A stretch of DNA of 64,000 bases from a virus. This document shows positions 6,140-56,882 of this stretch, piece after piece (the first letter of the stretch is position 1; every line of letters begins with the position of its first letter). The DNA is taken from positions 64,001-128,000 of IMG/VR virus record IMGVR_UViG_3300045988_126619, one strand, 5' to 3'. The translations under genes and the position numbers were made by a program. The notes under the pieces were generated by a model. That model worked only from the letters and a program-made list of their open reading frames with translations. It searched no databases and was not told the DNA's origin.

Positions 6140-6853
6140 TTGGCAGAAGATAAAATTAAATACTTAGAAGAACTTAGAGATAAATTAGAAAAGTCTAATA
6201 TAAGAGAATTTAAAAATTGGACTAAGCTATGTGAACTATTTTCGTGGAAAATTACTAGAGGAACATATAAACTTGCTAGAGAAAAAGAATTATCAATAAT
6301 TTGTCAATGGGAAAAGATTGGGAATAAAATAAAAATAAAAAAAATAAATAACAATATACAAAAGTCAGATATAAAAGATGGAAGGAGCGATATGATATTT
6401 GGTGGATATAATAATGTTAAAATTGGTAAAAATGAATACGATAATATAGGTATATATATTATTATTGATAAAGACAATAACTGTTATATTGGTTCTACCA
6501 TACAAGGTTTTAAACAAAGGTTTTACGACCATTATAGAAAAAAACACAAATCCATGCAACATACGTATGATTTATTACATGATAATTATGCAGAATTTAG
6601 AATATTGCACGATATGACAGATATTGAAGATGTAGAACTTATTCGTATGGTAGAAGATGAATATATCCAATATTACAAATCTCTACCACAATATAATGTT
6701 ATAAATAGAGCAGAAAAAGCTTATTATAAAGGTTATTGTAAAAAACAAAAATATAAAAGTTTAAAAATAAAAGAAGAAGATTATATGTTAGCTATTAAAA
6801 TATTGCAAGATAATAATATTGAAATAAAAGGAGAGTTATTAGATTATGAGTAA
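6140..6853 (+). CDS. GIY-YIG homing-endonuclease-like protein
   Basis: GIYIIIDKDNNCYIGSTIQGFKQRFYDHY contains GIY..YIG..R..H. TTG start after SD AAAGGGGGA. Free-standing between folD and a helicase gene. Confidence 0.7.
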   Translation: MAEDKIKYLEELRDKLEKSNIREFKNWTKLCELFSWKITRGTYKLAREKELSIICQWEKIGNKIKIKKINNNIQKSDIKDGRSDMIFGGYNNVKIGKNEYDNIGIYIIIDKDNNCYIGSTIQGFKQRFYDHYRKKHKSMQHTYDLLHDNYAEFRILHDMTDIEDVELIRMVEDEYIQYYKSLPQYNVINRAEKAYYKGYCKKQKYKSLKIKEEDYMLAIKILQDNNIEIKGELLDYE

Positions 6854-7025
6854 ATATTTTGCAGTCAAAGATGTGAAAATAGCAGAAATAATGTCTAGTT
6901 TATTAAATAAAAATTATTATAAATTTTATGATGAAAAATTAGGTCAAGATATTTATACTTTTGAAAGAACTGAAAACATAAATAAAGTTTATGGTCATGC
7001 TATGAGAATATTAGCAAACCTATAA
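6846..7025 (+). CDS. 59-aa hypothetical protein (below the track cutoff)
   Basis: ATGA overlap with the stop of 6140..6853. The ORF exactly fills the gap to the next gene. Confidence 0.45.
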   Translation: MSKYFAVKDVKIAEIMSSLLNKNYYKFYDEKLGQDIYTFERTENINKVYGHAMRILANL

Positions 7026-7043
7026 TTGGGAAGGATTACGATT

Positions 7044-8516
7044 ATGATTAAGAAAAAATATATACAAGAAATAATAGGTGATGATTATAGAAGTTGGGAA
7101 AAAGGTGAAACAATATTAATTAAAGCAGGCACAGGAGCAGGAAAATCTAGTTTTGTAAAAAATATATTAAATATGTTTTGTTACTGTAGAAATGAAAAAA
7201 TATTATTTCTTAGCAATAGAACCAATTTAAAAAAACAAAATGAAAATGATATAGATAAATTAATTGATATAGGATATAACAGCATAATAATAAAAAATTA
7301 CCAAGAAGTAGAAGAAAATTCTGAATGTGGAAAATATGATTTAAGTAAATATGATGTTATTGTTATGGATGAAGCACATTATTTCTTTACTGATTCAGCA
7401 TTTAATAATAGAACAGATGTTTTCTTTAGACAAATATTAAAGAATGATAATGTAATCAAAATTTTTATGACAGCAACTCCAACTATTTTACAATTCTATT
7501 TCAAGCAAAATAATTTGAAGTTTGATTATGAATATGAATTAGATACAGATTATTCATATTTAGAAAATGTTATAGCCTATAATAATAAAGATTCTGCTTT
7601 ATCAATAATTAATGAAATACCTCAAGATGAACAAATAATTTATTTTGGTTCTGTAAAAAGAGCATTAGAGATATCACAAACTTTTGGTGGAGCATTTATA
7701 TGTAGTAGGTATAATAAAGATTATTACAATAAATACGTTATCGGAACAGAAAATGAAGAAGAATTAAATAGGATTATTACAAGTCAAAAATTCAATAATC
7801 ATATATTATGCACAACTATAGCACTAGATAATGGGATAAATTTATCATCAAAATCTAATATAAAACATATAATTATAGAAGTTTCAGATTTGGATACTTT
7901 TATACAATGTTTAGGAAGAAGAAGGGTTGTTGATGGTGAAAAAATTAATTTATACTTCTATGATTTTTCTAACAATCAAGAAATAGCAGGTTATAGAACT
8001 AAATTATTAAAACCATTGGCAGAAGCCGACTTTCTTATTGATAAAGGCGAACTAGAATATGTAAAAGCATATAATAAACAACACAAAACAGGAATAGTAG
8101 ATTTTACAATTGGAGAAGATGGTTATACTCACCCACAATTAAATGAATGTATGTATTATAAATATTATGTTAATAAAATAATATATGATTCTATATTAGA
8201 TAAAAATACATCAACTAGTTATAAAAGTATGGTTTCTGTAGCATTAGGTGTTGAAATTATAGATAAAGAAATGACAGAAATAAAATCATCAACAGAGATA
8301 TATTTAGATGGATTAATAGGAAAACCACTTTATAAAGAAGACCAAAAAGAGTTAATAGAAAGATTAAATATTAGAGATGATAGGCACAGATTGCAAAAAA
8401 AGATATCTACATTAAATGGATATTTAATAGATAACTATAATATGATGTTGATTAGTAAAAGAATAAGAGAAGAAGGTGATAGAACCACAATTTGGTTAAT
8501 AAATAATATAGAATAA
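7044..8516 (+). CDS. superfamily-2 DEAH-type helicase
   Basis: Walker A GTGAGKSS, DEAH (VMDEAHYF), TATP, QCLGRRRV. SD GGAAGGA 8 nt before ATG 7044. Confidence 0.75.
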   Translation: MIKKKYIQEIIGDDYRSWEKGETILIKAGTGAGKSSFVKNILNMFCYCRNEKILFLSNRTNLKKQNENDIDKLIDIGYNSIIIKNYQEVEENSECGKYDLSKYDVIVMDEAHYFFTDSAFNNRTDVFFRQILKNDNVIKIFMTATPTILQFYFKQNNLKFDYEYELDTDYSYLENVIAYNNKDSALSIINEIPQDEQIIYFGSVKRALEISQTFGGAFICSRYNKDYYNKYVIGTENEEELNRIITSQKFNNHILCTTIALDNGINLSSKSNIKHIIIEVSDLDTFIQCLGRRRVVDGEKINLYFYDFSNNQEIAGYRTKLLKPLAEADFLIDKGELEYVKAYNKQHKTGIVDFTIGEDGYTHPQLNECMYYKYYVNKIIYDSILDKNTSTSYKSMVSVALGVEIIDKEMTEIKSSTEIYLDGLIGKPLYKEDQKELIERLNIRDDRHRLQKKISTLNGYLIDNYNMMLISKRIREEGDRTTIWLINNIE

Positions 8517-9186: not shown

Positions 9187-9224
9187 GCAAACCATATTAT
9201 ACAACAACATAGAACAGGGTAAAA

Positions 9225-9255
9225 GGGAAGATTGCTAACGCATCTTCTCCTTTTT
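9225..9255 (+). terminator. intrinsic terminator
   Basis: 8-bp stem GGGAAGAT/ATCTT(C)TCC with one bulge, 9-nt loop, TTTTT at 9251-9255. Confidence 0.65.
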
Positions 9256-9313
9256 AACTCATAAAACAAGTTTTATTCGTTATAGTTTGTTTTTTATTAT
9301 CTATACCTACAAC

Positions 9314-9516
9314 TATATACCCCCCCCATATATGAAGTATATCCGCCCATATAAGCTTCTTATACCCCTCCCCTTATAACTTTACTATTTATATTTGCAG
9401 GGTGCTTAGAACAGCTAATAGGGTTATTATTTTGTTATATGTTTACGACTGCAATATACCCCCTCCCTACCTATATATAATTATTGGCATTAATACGTTA
9501 AGTACCCGCCCTACTT
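9314..9516 (+). repeat. cluster of five short AT-stem hairpins with C-rich loops
   Basis: TATATA-C8-ATATAT (9314-9333); TATAT-CCGCCC-ATATA (9338-9353); TTATA-CCCCTCCCC-TTATAA (9360-9379); ATATA-CCCCCTCCCTACC-TATAT (9454-9476); AAGTA-CCCGCCC-TACTT (9500-9516). Confidence 0.6.
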
Positions 9517-9543
9517 GACAACAATTAAAAATAGTATTATAAT
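9515..9543 (+). promoter_or_regulatory. consensus sigma-A promoter firing into ORF-free DNA
   Basis: -35 TTGACA 9515-9520, 17-nt spacer, -10 TATAAT 9538-9543. No ORF of 60 aa or more lies downstream for 1.8 kb. Confidence 0.6.
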
Positions 9544-9757
9544 AGTAATAAAGAAGTAGGGTAGAATAATAGATATTTACTCTATGAAATGGCAATAAGT
9601 TCTTTGAAAAGTAAATAAAAAGGGTGTTTTTGAAAATGGATATATCCGATGATTTACATATGTTTATGAGTGATGTTATGAGAAAAGTGTTACTCGTCAA
9701 AAAATACAAAATGTGTGTAGATTAAGGAGAGGATGGCTTTGTTCACGAATTGAACAC

Positions 9758-9769
9758 AGTAAACGTTTA
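9758..9769. repeat. perfect 12-bp palindrome GTAAACGTTTAC (copy 1)
   Basis: An identical copy sits at 11294-11305. 11/12 copies are at 11237-11248 and 14176-14187. Confidence 0.7.
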
Positions 9770-9928
9770 CAAGTACCCCCTAGTATACGTTTTCATACGA
9801 TATATAACAGAGTATAAGTATACATTATACGTTGTTACCTATGTACTAGGCTTTACCAGTAATAAGGGAAAATATTTTCATAAATTGAACACTCATTAAT
9901 GTTATGTATATATTTGTTACGTACCTAT

Positions 9929-9944
9929 ACACACACACACACAC
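9929..9944. repeat. (AC)8 microsatellite
   Basis: Read directly from the sequence. Confidence 0.9.
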
Positions 9945-9966
9945 CAACATAACAAAATGTTAATAT

Positions 9967-9998
9967 CAAGTACAGTATTAGTAAACATAAAGTTTAAT
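9967..9998 (+). repeat. ~30-nt direct repeat, copy a
   Basis: CAAGTACAGTATTAGTAAACATAAAGTTTA versus CAAGTATAGTATTAGTAAACAAAAGTTTA at 11095-11125. Confidence 0.6.
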
Positions 9999-10192
9999 AT
10001 TAATGAACTATTACCACCATAAAGTTTTGTATTACTATACTTTGTGTTCACTATTACTATACTTGATTTATATATAAGATAAGATTTGAACGTTTGTTAT
10101 TTGTATAGTTGTTCAAGTTTCAATAGTTCAAATCTTATTTTCTCTTATATTTGATATCATGTTATATGGTATTATATACTACATTAACAAGT

Positions 10193-10405
10193 TTGACATA
10201 CAATGATAGAGTTGTTCTAGCAAAAGAGTTATCGAATACCACTTTAAGAGGTTTGACAAGTTATACATTATGTGTTCTAAGTTATATAGTAATGAATACT
10301 ACATAATAAGATTTGACAAACGCTATAACATTTGTTCTAAGATAAGAGTTATTGAATACCATATAAGAAGGCTTGACAAACTATGTTTGATTTGTTCTAA
10401 ATTTT
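10193..10405 (+). repeat. four tandem units in exact 60-bp phase
   Basis: TTGACA at 10193, 10253, 10313, 10373. GTTCTA at 10214, 10274, 10334, 10394. GAATAC at 10234, 10294, 10354. Confidence 0.8.
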
Positions 10406-10406
10406 T

Positions 10407-10650
10407 GGATACTATTTTGAGTGATTTGTCAAGAGTTAATTTATAAGAGGTATTTAATACTGCATTATAAGGTTTGACATAATAATAATTTTATATCTAG
10501 TTTTTTAGAACGACTGATTTTGTTTTGTCAAGTATAATTTTATATATGGTATTGGATACTGTTTAATAAGGTTTGACACATGATGATTTATATGCTCTAA
10601 GAATTTAGATACTATTTTTATAGTTTTGTCAATGGTTAATTTTAGGAGAT
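10407..10650. repeat. ~100-bp-phased composite units with alternating TTGACA orientation
   Basis: TGTCAA at 10427, 10526, 10627. TTGACA at 10474, 10573. (G/A)GATAC at 10407, 10554, 10607. Confidence 0.7.
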
Positions 10651-11094
10651 ATAGTGTATTTAATATGTATACATATGTATGTGTATGAAGTACACCAATC
10701 TATACACGTACAATATAACGACAATTTAGATTTGAACGTGAATTTAAGAACGAAAATAACCTTGTAATTAATCATTTATTTTGTGTTTGAATTTACATTT
10801 TTGTGAGAATTGAAGATAGCTGAAACGTAGTCATATCAATGGTTTGCAGGCTTACAAATATTCCTAATTAATGATAATATATATCATTTACATAAGAATA
10901 TAGTATAGTAAAGGTTTACAACGCATTTATTACGTTATTTTACGACTGTTTTATAACTGGTATTTTAAGAGATATTAAGAACACGAACGTTTAACGTATT
11001 GTGGTGTGAAACATTCAGATAACATATATTAGAACAAGTATTTTGATTTTGTCAAGTTTTTAGCGGAATAGAGTAGTATTGTACAATATATGAA

Positions 11095-11125
11095 CAAGTA
11101 TAGTATTAGTAAACAAAAGTTTATA
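11095..11125 (+). repeat. ~30-nt direct repeat, copy b
   Basis: Matches 9967-9998 with one mismatch and one indel. Confidence 0.6.
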
Positions 11126-11293
11126 AATAGTAAACAATTATCAGAATATTATGAGCGTGTATAATAACGATAATGGAACGATAGAACGGTTTTATTTTTC
11201 AAGGTATTAGTTTACCTGCGATTTTTGGGCGTGAATCTAAACGTTTACATGGGCATTAGAATTGATTGACCAGTCAACATATTGAGTAGTTTT

Positions 11294-11305
11294 GTAAACG
11301 TTTAC
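11294..11305. repeat. perfect 12-bp palindrome GTAAACGTTTAC (copy 2)
   Basis: Identical to 9758-9769. Confidence 0.7.
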
Positions 11306-11382
11306 AGAGTATGAGTGTTCAACAAGTGAACTATTGTTCTGAATAGTGTATAATTAAATAATATGCGAACCTTATCAAGTGC

Positions 11383-11415
11383 AAAAAAATAACTAGCGTA
11401 TAGAACGTTAGTTAT
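11383..11415 (-). terminator. intrinsic terminator of the leftward micro-operon
   Basis: On the - strand: stem ATAACTA/TAGTTAT, 13-nt loop, T7 run. It overlaps the stop of 11412..11621(-). Confidence 0.6.
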
Positions 11416-11621
11416 TGATATATAGATAAAGCTATTAATATTAATATACATAGAGTTGAAAACATTTGTAAGTTGCGTATAATACGTTGAATACTGTTTA
11501 ATGGTTTGAAATCAAGTGACACGTTATAAGAAGTTTTGTTATTATTAGTTATCTTTTTGCTGAATGTTAATGTAGTATTGAATACCATGTTAAAAGTTCT
11601 ATTATAAGTTGTTGTTATCAT
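11412..11621 (-). CDS. 69-aa protein with an Asn/Thr-rich N-terminus and a hydrophobic C-terminus
   Basis: SD AAGAGGTG 7 nt before the ATG. Bracketed by a - strand promoter and terminator. Its DNA overlaps copies of the GAATAC/TTTGA repeat words, so caution is needed. Confidence 0.4.
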   Translation of the reverse strand: MITTTYNRTFNMVFNTTLTFSKKITNNNKTSYNVSLDFKPLNSIQRIIRNLQMFSTLCILILIALSIYQ

Positions 11622-11651
11622 ATCTTTACACCTCTTATTATTTATTTTATG

Positions 11652-11768
11652 CTATATAAATTTATAAGTATAAACTTGTTCCTTAATATCTTTAATACCT
11701 AGAATGAATGATAGTTGTTTTTTGTCTACCACCTTTTGAGTTCCATCTTTAAAAAATATCTTACACAT
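11652..11768 (-). CDS. 38-aa peptide MCKIFFKDGTQKVVDKKQLSFILGIKDIKEQVYTYKFI (not in the track)
   Basis: Carries the AAAGGTGGTAATA SD signature used by + strand early genes, and is preceded by an AAGATAAATGATA box on the - strand. Confidence 0.45.
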   Translation of the reverse strand: MCKIFFKDGTQKVVDKKQLSFILGIKDIKEQVYTYKFI

Positions 11769-11818
11769 AATTTTATTACCACCTTTACATTTTTTGTTAT
11801 CATTTATCTTATGTACTC

Positions 11819-11847
11819 ATTATATAATAAATTTTGGATATAGTCAA
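11819..11847 (-). promoter_or_regulatory. consensus leftward promoter
   Basis: On the - strand: TTGACT (11842-11847), 17-nt spacer, TATAAT (11819-11824). Confidence 0.65.
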
Positions 11848-11935
11848 CATTTTAAGTAATATTTTTATTAATTATTTTATGTTATATATTATATATAATG
11901 TAGAGAAAATTTTAATAATATTTTTACTTAAAATG

Positions 11936-11964
11936 TTGACATAAGATAAACAATAATATATAAT
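11936..11964 (+). promoter_or_regulatory. consensus rightward promoter
   Basis: -35 TTGACA 11936-11941, 17-nt spacer (taagataaacaataata), -10 TATAAT 11959-11964. Confidence 0.75.
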
Positions 11965-12009
11965 AGTAGTTGTAAAGGACAATAGAATAAATTTAAAGAG
12001 GTGCTGTAA

Positions 12010-12336
12010 ATGAAACTTAATATTAAAAAATTAGATGGTTCAAAAGAACAAATTAAATGTGATAATTTTTCAATATTAACATATGAAAAAGATAAAAATA
12101 TTAAAGAATTATATAGTGGAAGTGAAATAGAAAGAATAACAGTAATGTCGGGTATTGTAGATAAAAACATGAGATTGCATGACTGTAAAATAAAATATTT
12201 AGCGTTAATATCACTATTAGACAAAAGCGATAAAGCTCAACCTTGGATGAAAATAGATTTAAACAATTCAAGTGTTGGTGACATTCAACAAAGAACAAGA
12301 GAAATAGAAGAATATATAATAGAATCTTTATGTTAA
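12010..12336 (+). CDS. hypothetical protein
   Basis: SD AAAGAGGTG upstream. Stop TAA 12334-12336 abuts the ribozyme. Confidence 0.6.
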   Translation: MKLNIKKLDGSKEQIKCDNFSILTYEKDKNIKELYSGSEIERITVMSGIVDKNMRLHDCKIKYLALISLLDKSDKAQPWMKIDLNNSSVGDIQQRTREIEEYIIESLC

Positions 12337-12407
12337 GCTTAAAAAGTGCTGACGAGTCTTTGAAAATTAAGACGAAACTAGGGGCAACCCTAGTCCACTT
12401 TAAAAGT
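12337..12407 (+). ncRNA. type I hammerhead self-cleaving ribozyme
   Basis: Stem I 12343-12348/12396-12401; core CUGACGA 12349-12355; stem II GUCUU/AAGAC 12356-12360/12369-12373; GAA 12374-12376; stem III ACUAGGG/CCCUAGU with GCAA loop 12377-12394; cleavage after C12395. Confidence 0.85.
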
Positions 12408-12437
12408 GAATTTTAATTAAATAAGGAGCGTTTAAAG

Positions 12438-12869
12438 ATGATTAAAATATTAAGAGTTGTTCAATTAAAACATATTAAAAAGGTTAAAATATTAGATGGA
12501 GATAATAAAATTACTATAGATTTTAGTAAGAATATTACGAAAATTAATAACAATCCTTTTGACACTTTTTCTAAAACTGTTATAAATGGAATACCAAACA
12601 AATATATTCACTTAGAAAAATTGTTTAACAATGAAGATAGAGAAAATATGTTAAACATTGTTTATGATATGATAGTAAAGGGTTGTTATAGCATAAGCAA
12701 TGATTATATCTATATAGATTATAATGGTAATGAATATAGAATTAATACACGTAATAAAGATAGTTTTATAATAGGAAGAATAGGAGATAATGAACTTGTT
12801 ACACGCTTTTATTATGAAGTAAATAATATAAAATCTAATACAGTATATGAAGTATTGTCTAATTGTTAA
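12438..12869 (+). CDS. hypothetical protein
   Basis: SD AAGGAGCG upstream. Confidence 0.6.
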   Translation: MIKILRVVQLKHIKKVKILDGDNKITIDFSKNITKINNNPFDTFSKTVINGIPNKYIHLEKLFNNEDRENMLNIVYDMIVKGCYSISNDYIYIDYNGNEYRINTRNKDSFIIGRIGDNELVTRFYYEVNNIKSNTVYEVLSNC

Positions 12870-12890
12870 TAATGTTTTTATTAAAAGTTG

Positions 12891-12919
12891 TTGACATTTA
12901 TAAAATTATCTATTATAAT
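12891..12919 (+). promoter_or_regulatory. sigma-A-type promoter
   Basis: -35 TTGACA 12891-12896, 17-nt spacer, -10 TATAAT 12914-12919. Upstream TTATTAAAAGTTG UP-like tract. Confidence 0.7.
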
Positions 12920-13874: not shown

Positions 13875-14141
13875 ATGTGGAAAAAGATATTTGATATTAA
13901 TAATCAATTAAAACAAGTTACAAACGATATTAAGGCAAGCGACAAGCAAATACACGCTATAGAGGTTAATAAGCAAGGATTATTATATATTAATAGTGTA
14001 ATAGGTGTGGCTAATGACGTGGCAACTGGAAATTATTGTTTGATAGGTGTAGTTGATAGTGGTTTGAGTTCAAATGATGAACGACTAAAGTTATACTTAC
14101 AAAATATAATAAATGAATACAATGAATTAAGAAGTGTATAA
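13875..14141 (+). CDS. hypothetical protein
   Basis: SD AAGGAGTG upstream. Confidence 0.55.
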   Translation: MWKKIFDINNQLKQVTNDIKASDKQIHAIEVNKQGLLYINSVIGVANDVATGNYCLIGVVDSGLSSNDERLKLYLQNIINEYNELRSV

Positions 14142-14166
14142 GAGGTATTATTACCTCTTATTTTAT
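14140..14166 (+). terminator. intrinsic terminator
   Basis: 8-bp stem AAGAGGTA/TACCTCTT, loop TTAT, then ATTTTATTA. Confidence 0.65.
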
Positions 14167-23360: not shown

Positions 23361-24335
23361 ATGAAAAAATACCTATACGAACAATATTTCAACGAACTAA
23401 ATGAAGATTTAAAAGTTGGTAAGGTTAGGGAAAACACTTACAAATCAAAGAAAAGTGATTTGAACACGCTTTACAATTATATGGCAGAACTTGGCTATAC
23501 AACAGAAAAAGATTTTTTTGAAAATGTTAGGCAATCAGATATAGACCAGTTTGCAGAACAATTAAAAACACAATATAAACCTTCCACATATAACAGAAAA
23601 ATAGCAACATTTAAAAAGTTTTTTAACTATCTAATTGACAATTCTTATATAGTTAATGTAAACTATTTTAACAATATTAAACAAATATCTAATGATATAG
23701 TGGAGGAAAAGACAAAAGAAAAAGATATTATTTCTATTGATAAAGTAAAAATGTTGTTAAATGCAACAGAAGAAAAAGACCAAGAAAAACAAAGTACATT
23801 TGAGTTTAATGCAAAAAGAAATAAAGCAATAATTACTATTTTAACTTGTTATGGTAGTAGAATTGAAGAAATTTTATCAACAAAGTTTTCAGACATAAAG
23901 GAAACAGAGAATAAAATTCAATATATAGATATTCCAAAAACTAGAGTTAAAAATCGCTTGCATAAAAGAATATTTATTGCAAATGCTATAAAAGAAAGCT
24001 TGGAGGAATATTTAAAAATCAGAAATGAAGTTCTACCATACAATGAAGATGATTATATATTCAGTAGTGTAAATGGTAAAAAATTGACTAGCAATAACAT
24101 AAATGAAGCATTAAGCAACTTATGTAAAAAAGCAAATATAAATAAACATATCACGTGTCATTGTTTTAGACATATTTGCACGTTAGCATTACAAGAAAAA
24201 TCAATACCAGAATACGACATTGATTATATTATAGGTTGGAAAAAGGGGGATTCTATGCAACAGAGATATTCAAAACATATGCCAATAGAAAAGATTAATA
24301 AAATTATATCCGCCACGGATTTACTGCAAAAATAG
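23361..24335 (+). CDS. tyrosine recombinase / phage integrase family
   Basis: GSRIEEIL (Arg), HCFRHICT (H-x-x-R), GWKKG..QQRYSKH (catalytic Tyr region), and an N-terminal SAM-like core-binding domain. Confidence 0.8.
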   Translation: MKKYLYEQYFNELNEDLKVGKVRENTYKSKKSDLNTLYNYMAELGYTTEKDFFENVRQSDIDQFAEQLKTQYKPSTYNRKIATFKKFFNYLIDNSYIVNVNYFNNIKQISNDIVEEKTKEKDIISIDKVKMLLNATEEKDQEKQSTFEFNAKRNKAIITILTCYGSRIEEILSTKFSDIKETENKIQYIDIPKTRVKNRLHKRIFIANAIKESLEEYLKIRNEVLPYNEDDYIFSSVNGKKLTSNNINEALSNLCKKANINKHITCHCFRHICTLALQEKSIPEYDIDYIIGWKKGDSMQQRYSKHMPIEKINKIISATDLLQK

Positions 24336-26005: not shown

Positions 26006-26983
26006 ATGAAAATGGAAAAATTTAAACAATATATAGAAGAAACAACAAACGAAGGGCAATTAAATAAGTATCAAAAAAATAAATTACAATGGCTTTATGA
26101 TAGTAAATATTCATATAATTCAAAATTGAATTTTTGGAAATTATTTAAAAGAAATGTTGATTTTGTAGAGTTGGAAAAGAATAAAGATGTTTATGATTTT
26201 GATAGACAAGAAATAATTGATTTAATTAAAAACACACCTACGACAAAAGTTTCAACAAAGTTAACAATATTTAGTATGATAAGTAGGTATATTGATTGGG
26301 CGGTTCAAAGAGGATTTAATTACATGGGTAATCCTTGCGATACTATCAATGTACACAAGATTTTAGATATTGATACAGAGGTAACAAAGGAACAATATAA
26401 ATCTCTACATGACTTTTATGATTGGTTAGGACAATTAAAAAGAGCAACACCAGTTGATAAAATGATTTTATTAATGTTGAGATATGGTATAGATGTCAAA
26501 AATATTGGAGAAATAAAAATGCAAGATATGGATATAGAAAAGAATATTTTACATTGTAAAAATGGTGATATAGAAGTATCCTTACCTATTGATGAAGAAT
26601 TTATTCAGATGGCAATAAAATCTAATGAATGTATAGAATCAGATGATGTAAGTTATATTGTTTCAGACTATATTGCAAAAGTACAAACAAATATGCAAGT
26701 TCCGACTTTAGATAAAACAGTAATTTATAACAGGATTAATGTTATTTTTAAAAGAGCAGAAGAAAAAAGAATATCTATTCCTTTATTAAATTTAAGTAGA
26801 AGATATGACATCTTATATAACAAATATCTTCTTAACGGAGAAGTTACAATTGATGATGTAAAGGAAACATTAAAGATATTTAATGGTAAATTTACACCAA
26901 ATCAAGCGTTAACATTAAAAAGGAATTTTGAATTGGCGATGGGTGGAGAAATTAAAGTCAATACATTTAGAACAAGAAAATAA
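26006..26983 (+). CDS. integrase-fold protein without an obvious catalytic RHRY set; possible MrpR/YopR-like DNA-binding regulator
   Basis: N-terminal SAM-like region (..TIFSMISRYIDWAVQRGF..NPCD). I could not find an H-x-x-R..Y signature. 325 aa. Confidence 0.4.
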   Translation: MKMEKFKQYIEETTNEGQLNKYQKNKLQWLYDSKYSYNSKLNFWKLFKRNVDFVELEKNKDVYDFDRQEIIDLIKNTPTTKVSTKLTIFSMISRYIDWAVQRGFNYMGNPCDTINVHKILDIDTEVTKEQYKSLHDFYDWLGQLKRATPVDKMILLMLRYGIDVKNIGEIKMQDMDIEKNILHCKNGDIEVSLPIDEEFIQMAIKSNECIESDDVSYIVSDYIAKVQTNMQVPTLDKTVIYNRINVIFKRAEEKRISIPLLNLSRRYDILYNKYLLNGEVTIDDVKETLKIFNGKFTPNQALTLKRNFELAMGGEIKVNTFRTRK

Positions 26984-37247: not shown

Positions 37248-37490
37248 ATGAAAAAATATGAATGTGTTAAAGCATTTTTAGTTCCATTATGTGATGATGA
37301 TGGTTTCATTATAGAGAATGAAGACAAATATATAGAAGAAGGTTCTATATGGAGTACACCAAAAGATGAAAATTATAGATTGATAGGAGCAGAAGTTAGA
37401 CTTGAAAAAAGTGATTGTGAACGGTTAGAATGGTTAGAAATAACTCAAGAAGATTTAGAAGACAAATTTAGATTGATAGAAGGTGTGTAA
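37248..37490 (+). CDS. hypothetical protein
   Basis: SD AAGGGGGA upstream. Confidence 0.55.
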   Translation: MKKYECVKAFLVPLCDDDGFIIENEDKYIEEGSIWSTPKDENYRLIGAEVRLEKSDCERLEWLEITQEDLEDKFRLIEGV

Positions 37491-37491
37491 A

Positions 37492-38925
37492 ATGATAGAT
37501 AAAGAATTAAATAAAAATATGGAAGTATTAAATATGTTGAGAAAAAGGATTATTATTTTGCCAGAAGTAAGGCTTATATTAGATAAACTTCACATAAATA
37601 ATCATAAGGCTTATATTGTGGGAGGTTATGTTAGAGATTCATTGTTAAAGAATCGTATGCCACATGATTGTGATATATGCACGTCTGCTACACCACAAGA
37701 AATTATGGATATATTTAAAAATTATAAAATAATTCCTACAGGTTTACAACATGGGACAGTAACTATTTGTATGAAATGGGGCGATTATGAAGTAACTACA
37801 TTTAGAAAAGATGGGGAATATTTAGATGGTAGACACCCACAAACAATTGATTTTGTTAATGATTTAAAAGAAGATTTGAGCAGAAGGGATTTTACGATTA
37901 ATGCGTTAGCTTATAATGAAGAAGAAGGATTAATTGATTATTTTGGAGGAAAGGAAGACCTTGAGAATAAAATCATAAGATGTGTAGGAGATGCTGAAAA
38001 AAGATTTAAAGAAGATGGATTGAGAATATTAAGAGCATACAGATTCTCTGCACAATTAGGATTTACTATAGAATATAATACAAGTAGTATATTAGCATAT
38101 AAAGGTGTAAAAACAAATATAGATAACGTATCAAGAGAAAGAATAAGAGAAGAATTAAACAAAATTATATTATCTGATAATTCAAGAGAAGTATTGCTTA
38201 ATATGGTTGATGATGGAATATGTAAAAGTATATTTGGGGATTTTACATTTGAAGATATGATGTTTTTTAATCAGAATAATCCTTATCACAATAGAACATT
38301 ACTCAATCATACACTAACTGCCATGACTATTGCTCCACCAATTTTAGAAGTTAGATTGGCATTATTATTTCATGATATAGGTAAATTACAAACACAAGCA
38401 ACTGATGATAAAGGCATTTCTCACTATTATAATCATTCAAAAGTATCAGCAGAATTAGCTTTAAAGTATTTAAAAGGATTAAAATATGATAATAAAACAA
38501 TAGATATGGTTGTTACATTGATTGCAAACCATGATTTTACATTTGATAATTATGATTATATAATTAAGAAACAATTGAAGAAGCTTCTTAATAAACATGG
38601 GGAAGAAATTGTTAAGAATTTAATAATAATTAGAAAATGTGATATATTAGCACAATCAGAAAAGTATTATTATGACCGATTAGAAAAAATTTATAAAGTT
38701 GAACGTTTACTAAATGATGTTTTAGAAGACCAAGAATGTTTTCAAATTAAAGATTTGGCTATAAACGGAAATGATTTAATTACAATAGGTTATGAGCAAG
38801 GTGTAGAACTTGGGAAAACTTTAAAATATATTGTAGACCTTGTTATAGAAGAACATTTGAATAATGACAAAGAAGAATTATTAGAATATGCAAAATTTTT
38901 ATTAAAAACACTTGACACAAAATAA
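37492..38925 (+). CDS. cca: CCA-adding tRNA nucleotidyltransferase with HD domain
   Basis: GGYVRDSLL, DCDICT, RRDFTINA, ERIREEL, then LLFHDIGK (HD). ATG 37492 follows SD GAAGGTG. Confidence 0.85.
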   Translation: MIDKELNKNMEVLNMLRKRIIILPEVRLILDKLHINNHKAYIVGGYVRDSLLKNRMPHDCDICTSATPQEIMDIFKNYKIIPTGLQHGTVTICMKWGDYEVTTFRKDGEYLDGRHPQTIDFVNDLKEDLSRRDFTINALAYNEEEGLIDYFGGKEDLENKIIRCVGDAEKRFKEDGLRILRAYRFSAQLGFTIEYNTSSILAYKGVKTNIDNVSRERIREELNKIILSDNSREVLLNMVDDGICKSIFGDFTFEDMMFFNQNNPYHNRTLLNHTLTAMTIAPPILEVRLALLFHDIGKLQTQATDDKGISHYYNHSKVSAELALKYLKGLKYDNKTIDMVVTLIANHDFTFDNYDYIIKKQLKKLLNKHGEEIVKNLIIIRKCDILAQSEKYYYDRLEKIYKVERLLNDVLEDQECFQIKDLAINGNDLITIGYEQGVELGKTLKYIVDLVIEEHLNNDKEELLEYAKFLLKTLDTK

Positions 38926-47354: not shown

Positions 47355-49538
47355 ATGAGAACATTAGTTTTACTTAGAGGAAGTGCAGGATGTGGCAAAT
47401 CAACATTTATTAAGGAGCATAAGTTAGAGGACTATACGTTGTCCTCTGACAGTTTTAGATTATTATATAGTTCACCTATATTAATGAATGATGGAACACA
47501 ATCAATTAGTGGAAAACATGAGAAAAAGACATGGGAAACATTATTTAATATCCTAGAATATAGAATGGAACAAGGGTTATTTACAGTAATAGATGCTACT
47601 AATAGTAAGGTTTCTGAAATTAACAAATATAAAAAACTTGCTGAATTTTATAGATATAATATTATTGTAGTAGATTTTACAGATTTGCCAAGAGAAGAAT
47701 GTAAGATTAGAAATGCAAATAGAGAACCTAGTTATAAAATAGTTCCAAATGTTGTAATAGATAAATTCTATGATAGATTTGATAAAAAGGAAAAGTTAAG
47801 TGGAGTAACAGTTATTAAACCACATGAATTTGAACAAGCTATAAGGATTACACCTATTAATGTATCTAACTATAATGATATTCAAATCATAGGAGATATT
47901 CATGGTTGTTATGATGCACTAATGACAATGTTAGAAGGTGGACAATTAAAAGAAGATAGATTATATATATTCACAGGAGATTTTTGTGATAGAGGTATCC
48001 AAAATGCAGAAGTGTTAGAATATTTATTCACTATTATGAACAATGATAATGTAATTTTATTAGAAGGAAACCATGAAAGAGCCTTATGGAGATATGCAAA
48101 TGATTTATATAGTCAACGAAGACAATTTGAAAAATATACAAAAGAAGAATTAATTAATAAAAATGTTTCTAAATCAAAAATTAGACATTTATATAGAAGA
48201 TTAAGGCAAATGGCTTTATTAAAGTTTGATGAAAAGACATTATTTATTTGTCATGGTGGTATTACTAATTTATCACAAGATTTACATTTGATTTCAGCAG
48301 AACAATTAATTTATGGTGTAGGTAATTATGAAGAAGTTGAAATTATTGATAATATATTTGAATTAAACACAAGTTCTACAACTTATCAGATACATGGACA
48401 TAGAAATGTTAATAGTAAACCTATTAATATAACACCAAGATGTTTCTGTTTAGAAGATAGAGTAGAATTTGGTGGGAATTTAAGAAGTGTAATATTTACA
48501 CACTCTATAATTAAAACTGTATCAGTAAAGAATGATACATATAAAGATTCAGAATACACAGAGGATAAAGATATTGTTATAGAGCCAAACATATTAGATA
48601 GATTAAGAAGTAGTGAATTAATTAGAGAAGTTAAGTTTGGTAATATTTCATCATTCAATTTTACAAGAAAAGCTTTTAATAATAAAGAATGGAATAATGA
48701 AACAATCAAAGCGAGAGGTTTATATGTAAATACTAATACAAAAGATATAGTTATAAGAAGTTATGATAAATTCTTTAATGTTAATGAAAGAGAAGAAACA
48801 CAATTACAGAACCTTTGTAAATCACTTTCTTATCCTGCTACAGCGTATGTTAAGTACAATGGATATCTTGGTCTAGTTGGTTATGATAACGAATCTGACA
48901 AGCTGTTAGTGGCTTCTAAATCACGATTGGATGGAGATTATGCAGACTGGATAAGAGAGATAATAAATACATGGGAAGATGATAAAATTCAATTCATGCA
49001 AGATTATGTTAAAAAGAACAAATGTACGCTAGTATTTGAAGTTATTGTTCCAGAACATGATACTCATATGATTAAGTATGATAAGTCTGAATTAGTGCTT
49101 TTATCCATTGTCAGAAATAATATTGAATTTGAACAGCTACCATATGAAGAAGTAATCGAACTTGGACACCGTTTAAATTTAAATTTTAAAGAGAAAGCAA
49201 TTGTTTTAAATAATAAGGAAGAGTTTTTGTCATGGTATAGAGAAGTTACACAAGAAGACTATATGTATAATGGTGAAGATATTGAAGGCTTTGTAATAGA
49301 GGATTCTAAAGGATTTATGACAAAAATTAAGTGTAGTTATTATACATTTTGGAAACATATGCGAGCATTAGTGGGAAGATATAAAAAACAAGGATATTAT
49401 ATGGATACTTCCAATTTAAATGATAGAGCATTATTATTCTTAGAATTTTTAAAGACATTACCAAAAGAACAATTGGAATATGATATCATTACATTAAGAG
49501 ATATGTTTTACAATTATGTTATTAATAAATTTTTTTAA
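47355..49538 (+). CDS. trifunctional polynucleotide kinase / metallophosphatase / RNA-ligase-like repair enzyme (bacterial Pnkp architecture)
   Basis: P-loop GSAGCGKST; GDIHGC, GDFCDRG, GNHE, HGH; ligase motifs KYNGYLG (I), EGFVIE (IV), TKIK (V). 727 aa. Confidence 0.75.
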   Translation: MRTLVLLRGSAGCGKSTFIKEHKLEDYTLSSDSFRLLYSSPILMNDGTQSISGKHEKKTWETLFNILEYRMEQGLFTVIDATNSKVSEINKYKKLAEFYRYNIIVVDFTDLPREECKIRNANREPSYKIVPNVVIDKFYDRFDKKEKLSGVTVIKPHEFEQAIRITPINVSNYNDIQIIGDIHGCYDALMTMLEGGQLKEDRLYIFTGDFCDRGIQNAEVLEYLFTIMNNDNVILLEGNHERALWRYANDLYSQRRQFEKYTKEELINKNVSKSKIRHLYRRLRQMALLKFDEKTLFICHGGITNLSQDLHLISAEQLIYGVGNYEEVEIIDNIFELNTSSTTYQIHGHRNVNSKPINITPRCFCLEDRVEFGGNLRSVIFTHSIIKTVSVKNDTYKDSEYTEDKDIVIEPNILDRLRSSELIREVKFGNISSFNFTRKAFNNKEWNNETIKARGLYVNTNTKDIVIRSYDKFFNVNEREETQLQNLCKSLSYPATAYVKYNGYLGLVGYDNESDKLLVASKSRLDGDYADWIREIINTWEDDKIQFMQDYVKKNKCTLVFEVIVPEHDTHMIKYDKSELVLLSIVRNNIEFEQLPYEEVIELGHRLNLNFKEKAIVLNNKEEFLSWYREVTQEDYMYNGEDIEGFVIEDSKGFMTKIKCSYYTFWKHMRALVGRYKKQGYYMDTSNLNDRALLFLEFLKTLPKEQLEYDIITLRDMFYNYVINKFF

Positions 49539-50946: not shown

Positions 50947-51501
50947 ATGGCAGTAACATTACAAAAAAGACAGGGAATATCATTATCAAAAGGTTTCTCT
51001 AAATTAAGATTTACAGTAAATTGGGAGTATAAAGATGCAGATGTAGACATTGAAGCAATTGTTGTAGATGATGGTATTGCTTTAATTGATGAAGACCTAG
51101 TTTTTTATGGCAATTTAAGACATCCAAGTAAATCAGTTAGACATTTAGGAGATATAAGAAATGGTGGTGGTTCTGATGGTGGAACTGAAACTATATCAAT
51201 AGATTTAACTAAACTACCTAATGATAGAAATGAAATTATTCTAACAGCTTCAATAGATGGAGCAGAATCAAACGGAAATAATTTTGGTAATATAGGTAAA
51301 GTTAGATGTGAATTAATTGATGATACAAATAGTAAATTATTAGCAACATATGATGTTGATGTTGATTTAGATATGGAAATTGCAGGAGTGTTATGTAGAA
51401 TATATAGAAAAGAAGATAATCAATTTGGATATGAAACAGTTGGGCAAGCTTATCCAAGCTTAGAAAGTATGGTAACACATTACGGAATAGTGGTGGCATA
51501 A
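50947..51501 (+). CDS. terD: TerD-domain stress protein
   Basis: MAVTLQKRQGISL.., DVDIEAIVV, DLVFYGN, HLGDIRNGGGSDGGTETISIDL (Ca-binding GD..G..D/E loop). 184 aa. Confidence 0.8.
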   Translation: MAVTLQKRQGISLSKGFSKLRFTVNWEYKDADVDIEAIVVDDGIALIDEDLVFYGNLRHPSKSVRHLGDIRNGGGSDGGTETISIDLTKLPNDRNEIILTASIDGAESNGNNFGNIGKVRCELIDDTNSKLLATYDVDVDLDMEIAGVLCRIYRKEDNQFGYETVGQAYPSLESMVTHYGIVVA

Positions 51502-51509
51502 AATAAACG

Positions 51510-51545
51510 ACAGCAGGACTTATTATATAGGTTCTGCTGTATTTA
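51510..51545 (+). terminator. terminator-like hairpin
   Basis: 10-bp stem ACAGCAGGAC/GTTCTGCTGT (one G-U), 11-nt loop, ATTT. Confidence 0.45.
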
Positions 51546-51564
51546 AAAACGAGGAGAGAGAACT

Positions 51565-51900
51565 ATGAAGAATAAAGAAATTATTAAATTAGATGAAAAT
51601 AGATGGGTATTATGGTCATATACAGAAGGAGTTATTTTGACTTGTGATTCAGAAGGAGATTTATTAGAGTATTTAGAAGATTGTAAATGTGTAGATTTAG
51701 ATGTAAAGGAATTTTTAGTTAATAGTAAAATATATGGAGCAAAATTAGAATGTATTGAAGAACTTATGACATATTCTGATAATGAAGATGATTGGGATAT
51801 ATTCTATAATTGGAAGAAAGAAGTGTTATGTTCTGTAGAAGATTTTGATGATTATTGCAGAGCAATAGACAATAAATTAAATGAATTATTAGAGAGGTAA
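51565..51900 (+). CDS. acidic hypothetical protein
   Basis: SD GAGGAGAG upstream. Confidence 0.55.
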   Translation: MKNKEIIKLDENRWVLWSYTEGVILTCDSEGDLLEYLEDCKCVDLDVKEFLVNSKIYGAKLECIEELMTYSDNEDDWDIFYNWKKEVLCSVEDFDDYCRAIDNKLNELLER

Positions 51901-51904
51901 TTAA

Positions 51905-52324
51905 ATGAGTTATGAAGTAACTGTAAGAGAAAGCACAATAAAAATTAAAAAAGAACTTGTTAAACAAGCTTTGGAAGATATTTGCAATCACCAAAAACAA
52001 CATGGAACATTTCAATATTGCTATTTTTTTAATATTGAAGATATAAATTTTAATAATTATGGAATAGATGATAATACATGGAGTGCAATAGATATATTTC
52101 ATGATTGTCTAGGGTTGGTCTGTAAATATGAAGATGATTGTTTATTTATAAAAAGATTAAGATATGACGGTTTAGCAGAAGAATTAGATATATTTAATGT
52201 CATAGCACCATATTGTTATGATGGGGGATATATGGAGTTTTGTGGAGAAGACGGAGAACTATTTAGATACACAATAAAAGATGAATCATGTATAGAACAA
52301 AGTCCTAAAATAGTTTGGGAATAA
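51905..52324 (+). CDS. hypothetical protein
   Basis: SD AGAGAGG upstream. Confidence 0.55.
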   Translation: MSYEVTVRESTIKIKKELVKQALEDICNHQKQHGTFQYCYFFNIEDINFNNYGIDDNTWSAIDIFHDCLGLVCKYEDDCLFIKRLRYDGLAEELDIFNVIAPYCYDGGYMEFCGEDGELFRYTIKDESCIEQSPKIVWE

Positions 52325-52348
52325 ATAAAAAAATATTTTAAAAAAGTA

Positions 52349-52377
52349 TTGACATAAAATAAATGATATGATATACT
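52349..52377 (+). promoter_or_regulatory. sigma-A-type promoter with box
   Basis: -35 TTGACA 52349-52354, 17-nt spacer, -10 TATACT 52372-52377. The leader has a TTGTAGT/ACTACAA hairpin. Confidence 0.6.
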
Positions 52378-52430
52378 AATATTGTAGTCAAGGGAACTAC
52401 AAAATAATAAATAGAAAGAGGGATAAATAA

Positions 52431-52985
52431 ATGGCAATTCAATTATCAAAGAACAAAGGAATTAATTTAAAGAAAGGCTTGGACAAAGTAAGATTTGTTG
52501 TAAGATGGGATTCTAAAGAAGATGTAGATATCCAAGCATTAGTTTTAAAAGACGGACAATCAAGTGCTGATGAAGATTTAGTATTCTACAATCAACCAAC
52601 ACATCCTACAGGAGCAGTAAAACATTCTGGAGATGTAAGAGATGGTTCAAAAGTAGATGGTGATGATGAATATATTGATATTACATTATCTGCTTTACAT
52701 CCACAAAAGAATCAAGTATTATTAACTGCTTCAATAGATAATGCAGTAGAAAAAGGTGTTGATTTTGGAAGTATTGGAAAAGTTACTTGTGAACTTATAA
52801 ATGCTAGTAACAATGAAGTTTTAGCAACATATCAAGTTGATAAAGACTTAGACATGGAAGCTTGTGGAGTTCTTTGTGAATTAAAGAAGAGTGATAATGG
52901 AAGTTGGGATTATAAAGCTGTAGGTCAAGCTTATATGGACTTAGGAGATATGTTAACATCATATGGATTCAATATAGCAGATTAA
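52431..52985 (+). CDS. terD: TerD-domain stress protein
   Basis: MAIQLSKNKGINL.., DVDIQALVL, DLVFYNQ, HSGDVRDGSKVDGDDEYIDITL. 184 aa. Clear paralog of 50947..51501. Confidence 0.8.
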   Translation: MAIQLSKNKGINLKKGLDKVRFVVRWDSKEDVDIQALVLKDGQSSADEDLVFYNQPTHPTGAVKHSGDVRDGSKVDGDDEYIDITLSALHPQKNQVLLTASIDNAVEKGVDFGSIGKVTCELINASNNEVLATYQVDKDLDMEACGVLCELKKSDNGSWDYKAVGQAYMDLGDMLTSYGFNIAD

Positions 52986-53037
52986 TATTAATAAAACATA
53001 AAATAAATGATAATAAATAAAAAGGAGAGATTTGAAT

Positions 53038-53460
53038 ATGAAATATAAAGTAGATGAAAGATTAAGTGGAACAGTAAGATTAGAAATTGGAGAAAGAATG
53101 TTTGTAGAAGATGTTTGTAAAACAATTATTGGTGGAAAAGCATTATTGGAAGATGAAGATTATATTAAAGAGCATAATGTATCAGAAGAAGATTTAAATG
53201 ATGTAGCACAACAAATAGCAGAAGCTGAAAAAGCTTATTTAGCATTATTAAATGATGTAGCAGGAACAACTGATGAAAATGAAGAAGATGCTAAAGAAGT
53301 ACAAAGTATGATTAGAATGTTAGCTTTTGATTCAGAAGGAGAATTAGGACTTTTAGTATTAGAAGGAACTAGAGCAACTAATGATGAAGAATTATTAAAA
53401 TTTGTAAGTGCAAAAATAATGATAGATAATGAAGATATGTATGTTGAAATTGATGAATAA
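53038..53460 (+). CDS. acidic 140-aa protein, TerD-partner paralog 2
   Basis: SD AAAGGAGAG 8 nt before ATG 53038. Paralog of 50518..50934. Confidence 0.6.
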   Translation: MKYKVDERLSGTVRLEIGERMFVEDVCKTIIGGKALLEDEDYIKEHNVSEEDLNDVAQQIAEAEKAYLALLNDVAGTTDENEEDAKEVQSMIRMLAFDSEGELGLLVLEGTRATNDEELLKFVSAKIMIDNEDMYVEIDE

Positions 53461-53476
53461 AAGGAGAGATTGAATA

Positions 53477-54133: not shown

Positions 54134-54149
54134 TAATAACATAAAATAA

Positions 54150-54180
54150 ATGATAAGGGATAATAACAATCCTTTATCAT
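54150..54180 (+). other. 12-bp hairpin that sequesters the ATGATA end of a box copy
   Basis: ATGATAAGGGAT-N7-ATCCTTTATCAT (one G-U). Confidence 0.45.
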
Positions 54181-54214
54181 TTAAATAAATTAATTATAAG
54201 GAGAGATAAATAAT

Positions 54215-56833: not shown

Positions 56834-56840
56834 TAAATTG

Positions 56841-56874
56841 TAAGAGTGGTAGAAATATCACTCTTATTTTTTTT
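56841..56874 (+). terminator. strong intrinsic terminator
   Basis: 8-bp stem TAAGAGTG/CACTCTTA, 10-nt loop, T8. Confidence 0.85.
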
Positions 56875-56882
56875 AAAAACTA

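Follow-up and report, generated by a model that had tools for sequence, protein, structure and literature searches.

Hammerhead ribozymes of bacteria and prophages, some of them in arrays, were published in 2011 together with their cleavage in vitro and in vivo and the hypothesis that they process polycistronic RNA (PMC3088659). The RNA is cut 3' of position H17, which leaves a 2',3'-cyclic phosphate on one product and a 5'-OH on the other (PMC3088659). Prophage hammerheads that flank genes cleave both in vitro and in E. coli, and the processing of polycistronic RNA has been proposed as their role (PMC3088659, PMC6765202); the purpose of phage hammerheads is still listed as unknown in a review (PMC6765202). 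The present analysis concerns a stretch of 64,000 nucleotides (nt) of viral DNA, positions 64,001 to 128,000 of IMG/VR record IMGVR_UViG_3300045988_126619, which is called the window throughout. It has a G+C content of 25% and all of its genes lie on the + strand. Reading of the sequence from 11900 to 12700 revealed a complete type I hammerhead on the + strand at 12337-12407, between a small open reading frame (ORF), ORF108, and the next cistron, ORF143. The best account of the element is a self-cleaving 3' end module that belongs to the upstream gene and would split the transcript of the promoter at 11936 between positions 12395 and 12396. The probability of this reading is put at about 80%.

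All positions on the published criteria list of the class (C3 U4 G5 A6 N7 G8 A9, G12 A13 A14, A15.1, U16.1 and H17; PMC3088659) are present in the window element. Stems I, II and III have 6, 5 and 7 base pairs (bp), respectively, with zero mismatches, and the pairs adjacent to the core are of the standard type (C12396-G12348, G12356-C12373 and A12377-U12394). Loops close stems II and III and both RNA ends lie in stem I, which is the type I topology, and a descriptor scan also labelled the locus type I. A sequence-only reading of this stretch had earlier proposed a canonical type I hammerhead here. All of its hammerhead coordinates proved correct, with every core position and the stem geometry in place, and the identification is upheld by the core, by a family covariance model, by covariation in stems I and III and by a syntenic orthologue with compensated stems. 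Every sequence-level feature that defines the hammerhead class and type I is found, and the sole failure is a score below the Rfam cut-off, which is taken up below. Judged from its sequence, the element at 12337-12407 is a genuine type I hammerhead ribozyme that is very probably active.

The 71 nt taken alone have a minimum free energy (MFE) fold that is exactly the three-way junction (-20.3 kcal/mol, z = -3.5), and none of 200 shuffled sequences was as good. A descriptor for types I, II and III (CUGANGA, GAA, A15.1-U16.1, H17, and stems of at least 4, 3 and 3 bp) matched once when both strands of the 64 kb were scanned. Dinucleotide shuffling of the window, repeated 300 times, gave 0.12 minimal-stem matches per shuffle, none of them with stems of 6, 5 and 7 bp. 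The single match and the lack of an equal in the shuffles indicate that the motif is real, unique in the window and far past chance. The family covariance model likewise gave a single site, so the earlier claim that this is the only copy in 64 kb holds; no further hammerhead copies were found in the flanks, 10 kb beyond each window end. That the locus is a chance match, or an ordinary pair of hairpins or a terminator, has a negligible probability. The stem III hairpin was flagged on the minus strand by the terminator scan, and the minus strand folds as well as the + strand (-21.2 kcal/mol); however, the locus has no minus-strand genes, neither hairpin of the + strand has a trailing U-run, and no shuffle held an equal hammerhead. 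This explanation is refuted by the shuffles together with the family model score, the family covariation and the compensatory changes of the orthologue L242, all given below. An intrinsic (Rho-independent) terminator on the + strand was also rejected, as stem III is followed by CCACUUUAAAAGUG, without a U-run, and the terminator scan reported none here.

The window element fits a subfamily defined by an exact 30-mer (core, stem II, loop II UGAAAAUU and GAAAC), an A at position -7 (A12342 in the window), a stem I of 5-6 bp and type I topology. The family was collected by an exact-pattern scan for CTGANGAGTCTTTGAAAATTAAGACGAAAC, and its viral counts are those among the matches listed. At least 119 IMG/VR contigs carry the 30-mer without change. 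It was also found in 82 stretches of species-representative bacterial genomes, nearly all from gut Clostridia/Bacillota and including Lachnospiraceae, Christensenellaceae, Oscillospiraceae and Clostridium; none of these 82 stretches is the phage under study. Clean type I elements (stem I 5-6 bp, stem III 4-12 bp) account for 108 of the 132 viral instances and type I for 68 of the 82 genomic ones. H17 is C in 81 of 97 members, whereas N7 varies (U 59, C 22, A 15, G 1). The A at -7 is retained in 94 of 96 members. It was considered that the conserved A, or UAA, before stem I is merely a stop codon, and this was ruled out, as A(-7) is conserved alike at sites without a real stop codon (36/37) and at sites with one (45/46). 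A(-7) is therefore a feature of the ribozyme, often reused by upstream genes as the last base of UAA. Related phage hammerheads with the GUC/GAC base of stem II often retain the UGNNAAUU loop while the stem pairs covary (GUCGU..ACGAC and GUCGC..GCGAC were seen), indicating that the loop, not the helix sequence, is the constrained part. The conserved loop II and A(-7) may reflect a tertiary contact of loop II with stem I. A pseudoknot of loop II (GAAAAUU) with AAUUUU at 12409-12414, 8 nt past stem I, was rejected as a feature of the family, because the family flanks gave 8 and 6 of 91 versus a background near 5%; this complementarity is probably due to chance in an AT-rich genome.

A covariance model, R1, was built from 21 independent relatives of uniform geometry in a gap-free alignment (A2), with the window sequence left out. 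The window element scores 66.1 bits in R1 (E about 6e-19), and the second-best window site scores 12.7 bits. Among the 21 members, double compensatory changes occur in 6 of 6 stem I pairs and in 4 of 6 stem III pairs. Run on 100 sources, R1 gave 119 matches, 99 of them distinct (alignment A7). In A7, which is fitted to the model and in which stem II is fixed by the family search pattern, standard pairs fill 95.2% of cells versus 68.3% when shuffled and 33-46% with slid partners, and double changes are seen in 15 of 17 pairs, including 6/6 of stem I and 5/6 of modelled stem III. Distal stem I extensions of at least 4 bp are found in 29 of 91 family members versus 16.3 +/- 3.0 when permuted, an excess that is somewhat inflated by related sequences. 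Arrays also occur in the family: contigs L030, L066, L106, L042, L011, L053, L088 and L029 hold 2-3 subfamily hammerheads, 390-600 nt apart and each behind a small ORF. As R1 also finds neighbours whose stem II differs, arrays are commoner than would be judged from the exact-pattern scan.

When 3 kb around the site were compared with GenBank phages by megablast, no match was obtained, and IMG/VR searches with both flanking proteins gave no relatives. Exact protein matches assign the window to a contig of about 159 kb (ENA ERZ27293550 k109_7570). Ten related contigs (L125-L134) retain ORF108 and the hammerhead. Their sole difference within the ribozyme is at N7, the one unconstrained core position, which is C in the window and U in L125, L127, L128 and L130-L134. 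Homologues of ORF108 elsewhere have 60-94% identity, the distant ones 60-69%. One of them, in L242, is 64% identical and has a hammerhead directly after its TAA, which reads GAAGUG-CUGACGA-GUCUUUGAAAAUUAAGAC-GAA-AACGGG-GCAA-CCCGUU-C-CACUUC. The outer pair of its stem I is G-C instead of the A-U of the window. Its stem III is rebuilt from 7 to 6 bp, with the second pair changed from C-G to A-U, and is fully paired, while core, stem II with its loop and the GCAA loop are as in the window. The sequence-only reading had held that non-compensatory stem changes in homologous loci would speak against it; what was found instead is compensation in both altered stems of L242, and variation of the close relatives at N7 only. 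Homology of L242 to the window stops at the 3' edge of the ribozyme. The L242 sequence fetched is 5.4 kb long and carries lysis genes, and its protein is also present on a 16.7-kb contig. A window-type ribozyme interrupted by the contig end was seen in L243. ORF108 itself is an early-type gene common to a 159-kb phage and to unrelated small phages. Its homologues in L240, L241 and L242 lie at the ends of short phage contigs or close to them, and among these 3 a hammerhead is found only in L242.

The placement of the element relative to genes is also regular. From the upstream stop (in a frame of at least 40 codons) to stem I, the family median is 0 nt, with 0-4 nt in 41 of 90 cases; from the cut, the median is 28 nt to the first Shine-Dalgarno-like motif and 42 nt to the next start. 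The corresponding distances in the window are 6, 27 and 42 nt, and a second TAA at 12340-12342 adjoins stem I exactly, as the stops in the family do. Owing to the type I topology, the upstream product would keep the entire ribozyme body and only CACUUU would pass downstream. The abutment on the stop codon, the predominance of type I and the co-inheritance with the upstream gene, which is described below, make a 3' end module of the upstream cistron the best reading.

Perfect TTGACA-17-TATAAT promoters (12/12) occur 4 times within 5 kb on the + strand, at 9515, 11936, 12891 and 14442. Given the promoter at 11936 and the terminator-like hairpin at 14138-14161, the transcript should cover ORF108, the hammerhead and ORF143 and run on past the next promoter. 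The label of an early region rests on the 4 consensus promoters and is plausible; a promoter cluster with a hairpin is typical of an early region dependent on host polymerase. According to the proposed mechanism, the ribozyme would be transcribed from the promoter at 11936 within an ORF108-hammerhead-ORF143 mRNA, and the three-way junction would form once the 3' strand of stem I emerges. The 2'-OH of C12395 would attack its own 3' phosphate. The upstream product would be an ORF108 mRNA ending about 59 nt past the stop in a 2',3'-cyclic phosphate, with the ribozyme body (stems II and III) kept. The downstream product would begin with a 5'-OH on C12396, ahead of the Shine-Dalgarno sequence and the ATG of ORF143 by the distances given above. 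The module would set the end of the ORF108 mRNA without terminating transcription and would uncouple the fate of the next cistron. A structured 3' end without a 3'-OH may resist 3' exonucleases and polyadenylation-assisted decay, and cleavage presumably takes place in the cell and alters the stability or translation of both products. Such a separation of cistrons would match the published hypothesis on phage hammerheads (PMC3088659, PMC6765202).

As seen in the relatives, ORF108 and the hammerhead are constant across 3 downstream genes in the close relatives, and a fourth downstream gene is found in L242. The variable slot, about 12427-12880, is occupied by ORF143 in the window and in L126 and L129, by a 58-amino acid ORF in 6 relatives, and by a 40-amino acid remnant in L130, where the promoter is deleted. 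Homology of the relatives ends inside the Shine-Dalgarno sequence at 12426/12427 and returns before the promoter at 12891. In L124, a 91%-identical ORF143 lies directly behind a promoter of the 11936 type, without ORF108 and without a hammerhead, and its leader begins with a 7-bp hairpin (UUGUAAG...CUUACAA). A homologue search with ORF143 returned only itself and one 91% variant. It can be seen that the ribozyme is co-inherited with the upstream gene, whereas the downstream gene is swapped. The hammerhead itself was considered as a recombination breakpoint and was not supported as one among the close relatives, whose junctions lie in Shine-Dalgarno sequences at about 12000 and 12427; in L242, however, homology does stop at its 3' edge. 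Searches of Pfam and PHROGs with ORF108, ORF143 and their neighbours gave no family match, and an AlphaFold model of ORF108 from 5 sequences is unusable (predicted local distance difference test score, pLDDT, 44.8). The genes flanking the family are small, with a median of about 90 amino acids, and almost all are uncharacterised. In a Pfam survey of them a common function was not found, 51 of 54 upstream genes being without a match; a Rho_N domain is present in 9 of 66 downstream genes.

The swapped slot also bears on a tentative alternative that overlaps with the 3' end module, namely that the ribozyme is an insulator or cassette boundary with its selected function downstream. Any gene in the slot would receive a fixed short 5' leader, made up of a 5'-OH end, a short 5' hairpin, a spacer rich in A/U and the Shine-Dalgarno sequence, and its expression might then be independent of the upstream RNA. 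The engineered RiboJ is an insulator element that resembles such an arrangement. Different genes in the slot of otherwise identical relatives, the junction within the Shine-Dalgarno sequence and the regular family distances from the cut to the Shine-Dalgarno-like motif and start codon all agree with an insulator. The same holds for a 5'-terminal hairpin of the 3' product, which is present in the window and enriched in the family; hairpins starting at nt 1-2 occur in 28 of 83 members versus 13.1 +/- 3.0 when permuted (maximum 23 in 1000), an enrichment that is partly due to related sequences. However, the hammerhead is inherited with the upstream and not with the downstream gene, L124 would express ORF143 without a hammerhead, and the L242 orthologue has no such hairpin. 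The 3' end module is preferred.

Several observations weigh against the 3' end module, and some of them touch the hammerhead itself. Rfam 15 at gathering thresholds reported nothing in the whole window, and its permissive mode gave nothing relevant over 64 kb. In a permissive local search of 12250-12500, RF00163 (Hammerhead_1) was the top Rfam match, with all model positions 1-45 aligned, and its score was 21.2 bits versus a gathering cut-off of 34 (E = 0.007 for this 251-nt search). The sequence-only reading had named a covariance-model score below threshold as evidence against its claim, and on this point the result formally went against it. The low score arises because stems II and III contain 12-nt insertions compared with the short 45-position model; it reflects the penalty on long stems II and III and not a defect of the motif. 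As a practical consequence, the Rfam type I model at its curated threshold misses an abundant gut-phage subfamily.

The relatives supply further counterweights. The flanks of the close relatives are as identical as the ribozyme (630 nt around the site), so conservation there is uninformative; the identity is consistent with constraint and is no proof of it. Moreover, L240 and L241, phi29-like phages of about 17 kb with a Phage_connector gene, carry an ORF108 homologue without any hammerhead, and the gene can evidently do without the ribozyme. These observations would be expected if the element were a functionless hitch-hiker that arrived with a horizontally transferred ORF108 cassette and was retained, active or not, through recent divergence, as purifying selection is not demonstrable among near-identical relatives. 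This is improbable, however, in view of L242, which at 64% protein identity retains a perfect core, an identical stem II with its loop, and compensated stems I and III, and in view of the same architecture and gene placement across hundreds of independent copies.

Folding predictions and host enzymes also count on the opposing side. For 12337-12415 the energies are -18.6 kcal/mol with stem I only, -21.0 with its extension, and -18.7 for stems II and III together with the alternative 3' hairpin at 12396-12408. In contexts of 140-490 nt the partition function assigns stem I a probability of 0.003-0.014 and the hairpin one of about 0.9. As the folding model ignores tertiary contacts and co-transcriptional order, the dominance of the hairpin is no argument against activity. 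In secondary readings, the hairpin could cap or protect the 5' end of the downstream product, or throttle cleavage. The direction of a stability effect on either product depends on the RNases of the host. For the downstream RNA, decay can begin at a 5'-OH end in those Bacillota that possess RNase J1, glmS being an example, and in hosts with RNase E such an end tends to protect.

A throttled ribozyme would be attenuated or conditional: the hairpin would compete with stem I, only a fraction of transcripts would be cut, and the ratio of full-length to processed RNA would be set in this way. It is equally conceivable, and equally rather unlikely, that cleavage is governed by ribosome traffic at the adjoining stop codon, or by Mg2+ and temperature. 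The nearly equal energies and the dominance of the hairpin in long contexts speak for attenuation, as does the close approach of stem I to the upstream stop in the family, where a terminating ribosome, from the size of its footprint, would cover stem I and the core. Regulated cleavage of phage hammerheads has been raised before (PMC3088659). On the other hand, stem I is finished before the 3' arm of the hairpin is transcribed, and the hairpin occurs in only about a third of the family and not in L242. The thermodynamic models also omit the loop II-stem I tertiary contacts, which make natural hammerheads fast. The 3' end module is retained as the preferred reading.

Beyond the single locus, a broader view of the same module may be ventured with some reserve, in which the hammerhead is the 3' part of a portable cassette composed of a Shine-Dalgarno sequence, a small ORF, UAA, a type I hammerhead and a short spacer. 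It is possible, if doubtful, that such cassettes move between unrelated gut-Clostridia phages and that the ribozyme acts both as a self-cleaving 3' untranslated region and as an insulator. With the same reserve, the stop codon might be built into the conserved AA of the ribozyme, and each cassette might be expressed independently of its neighbours. This would explain the identical 30-nt body in hundreds of unrelated phages, the stop abutment, the arrays and the swapped slots. The locus and its relatives provide a natural experiment, in which the same promoter occurs with and without the ORF108-hammerhead unit (L124), and the unit occurs before 3 downstream genes, as well as both in a phage of 159 kb and in one unrelated to it on short contigs.

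Table 1. Features of the hammerhead locus and its surroundings (window coordinates)
Feature	Position	Strand	Basis or remark
Sigma-70-type promoter, TTGACA-17-TATAAT	11936-11964	+	12/12 consensus; predicted to drive the ORF108-hammerhead-ORF143 transcript
ORF108, small protein	12010-12336	+	ORF list; gene to which the hammerhead is attached
ORF108 stop TAA	12334-12336	+	Sequence
Stem I distal extension, GCUU/AAGU, beyond AA/AA internal loop	12337-12340/12404-12407	+	MFE fold; optional
Second in-frame TAA adjoining stem I, contains A(-7) at 12342	12340-12342	+	Sequence
Stem I, 5' strand, AAAGUG	12343-12348	+	Sequence, fold, double compensatory changes in the family
Catalytic core CUGACGA (C3-U4-G5-A6-C7-G8-A9)	12349-12355	+	Sequence
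Stem II, GUCUU/AAGAC, with 8-nt loop II UGAAAAUU	12356-12360/12369-12373	+	Sequence
Core GAA (G12-A13-A14)	12374-12376	+	Sequence
Stem III, ACUAGGG/CCCUAGU, with GCAA tetraloop	12377-12383/12388-12394	+	Sequence, fold
A15.1 and U16.1, both within stem III	12377 and 12394	+	Sequence
Predicted scissile bond, C17/C1.1	12395/12396	+	Position from hammerhead consensus (PMC3088659)
Stem I, 3' strand, CACUUU	12396-12401	+	Sequence, fold; would form the 5' end of the downstream product
Alternative hairpin CACUU-UAA-AAGUG, using the stem I 3' strand	12396-12408	+	Folding energies
Shine-Dalgarno sequence of ORF143, AAGGAG	12423-12428	+	Sequence; homology of relatives breaks within it, after 12426
ORF143, downstream cistron, ATG at 12438	12438-12869	+	In the variable slot, about 12427-12880
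Next perfect sigma-70-type promoter	12891-12919	+	Consensus match; right border of the variable slot

The phage also carries what may be called an RNA repair kit. A 727-amino acid fusion of polynucleotide kinase (AAA_33), metallophosphoesterase and Rnl1-type RNA ligase is encoded at 47355-49538 and shares about 40% identity with SPbeta-like and Staphylococcus phage proteins, and a CCA-adding enzyme with an HD domain lies at 37483-38925. The substrates of such a kit, 2',3'-cyclic phosphate and 5'-OH ends, have the end chemistry of hammerhead products. It could be supposed from these genes that the cut is a substrate for ligation or circularisation, with the ends rejoined by the kinase-phosphatase-ligase, but this is very unlikely. 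Rnl1-type systems are known for tRNA repair, and a single hammerhead in the about 84 kb examined defines no excised segment. Spliced or circular products of prophage hammerheads were sought by Perreault et al., and none were found (PMC3088659).

Other parts of the phage were noted in passing. The region 9200-12000, which precedes the locus, is gene-poor, with lower G+C content, AT skew and two short minus-strand ORFs; it contains degenerate direct repeats of 100-120 nt (10161-10642), C-rich boxes ATATACCCCCCCCATA at 9315, 9360 and 9454, and a 53-nt inverted repeat (11819-11871/11912-11964) that forms divergent promoters. A regulatory or origin function is possible for this stretch. Also within the early region, a GIY-YIG-like ORF (6140-6853) and a DEAD/ResIII helicase (7026-8516) form a swapped module, in place of which some close relatives carry a single unrelated 407-amino acid ORF (L125 4966-6189 versus window 6140-8516). 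Just left of the window, at 8492-9877 of L244, a small helix-turn-helix protein is followed by a tubulin-family protein, as in a TubR/TubZ-like partition pair, and two tyrosine-recombinase-like genes lie in the window itself, at 23361-24335 and 26006-26983. The partition pair and the recombinase-like genes hint at a plasmid-like or temperate lifestyle. An auxiliary metabolic block at 50947-61888 includes TerD-domain genes (50947-51501, 52431-52985 and 53477-54133), a P-type cation ATPase (54215-56833) and an NAD salvage set, which consists of isochorismatase/nicotinamidase-like (57867-58412) and phosphoribosyltransferase-like (58427-59251) genes, NAMPT (59353-60843) and NAD synthase (61151-61888).

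Among described systems, the prophage hammerheads of Perreault et al. (PMC3088659; RF00163, clan CL00010) share with the window element the core, the 3 stems and the lack of a core-adjacent mispair. They, too, are found between small genes of phages, in the sense orientation and in some cases as arrays on either side of a single gene, and RNA processing was proposed for them. The window element differs in scoring below the gathering cut-off of RF00163, its stems II and III being longer than those of the 45-position model. Many bacterial hammerheads have a reported pseudoknot, which in the window subfamily is unsupported by the enrichment test on family flanks. The RAGATH-1 hammerhead (RF03152) has the same core and a long stem III hairpin; however, its 5' hairpin and conserved AU-rich spacer are missing here, and with 20.9 bits versus a cut-off of 56.3 the window element is not a member.

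The closest sequence likeness is with crAss-like phages. A sensitive blastn search of the locus against GenBank phages matched the core and stem II alone, at 97-100% identity, in a number of crAss-like phages and of faecal contigs labelled 'Bacteriophage sp.' The 3 matches that were read comprise a type I element with other stems I and III, a type III permutation, and a copy with an A6a insertion. In cr53_1, cr131_1, cr272_1 and cr273_1, core, stem II and loop II show this high identity, but the lineages are unrelated to the phage under study. In the cr53_1 type (L003, L027, L069, L097 and L104), this core with its stem II and loop II is arranged as a type III element, in which stem I is closed and stem III open; in cr53_1 the motif lies about 1.2 kb upstream of a tRNA-Leu. 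In cr273_1 (L001) an extra A follows A6, and hammerheads with this insertion are described as a slow variant (PMC3088659).

More distant likenesses concern architecture and function. The extended hammerhead of the Schistosoma type is also type I, with a closed stem II that bears a conserved loop and, some 6 bp up stem I, an A-rich internal loop of unpaired bases at which such tertiary contacts are made (PMC3088659). The loop sequences are unrelated, a possible contact in the window subfamily is suggested by the conservation of loop II and A(-7), and the setting is a phage mRNA and not a satellite repeat. Functional analogues only are glmS (mentioned in PMC6765202) and RiboJ, where self-cleavage of a bacterial mRNA leaves a 5'-OH leader with an altered fate. 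The first belongs to another ribozyme class and the second is a synthetic construct, and ligand dependence is not indicated for the window element.

Compared with all of these systems, the window copy is a known kind of phage hammerhead, of a common gut-phage subtype and without new chemistry. A search of paper texts for the stem II sequence string found none, in a literature of incomplete coverage; with the same limit, no prior description of the subfamily with invariant GUCUU-UGAAAAUU-AAGAC and A at -7 was found, and it may be new. At the level of the family, the exact 30-nt body across hundreds of unrelated gut phages with conserved loop II and A(-7), the overlap of the stop codon with the 5' edge of the ribozyme, and the linkage to the upstream gene may be new as well. 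Stop abutment, about 42 nt to the next start, type I topology and upstream co-inheritance are rules of the family that turn the vague notion of 'mRNA processing' held for phage hammerheads into a testable model of a 3' end module.

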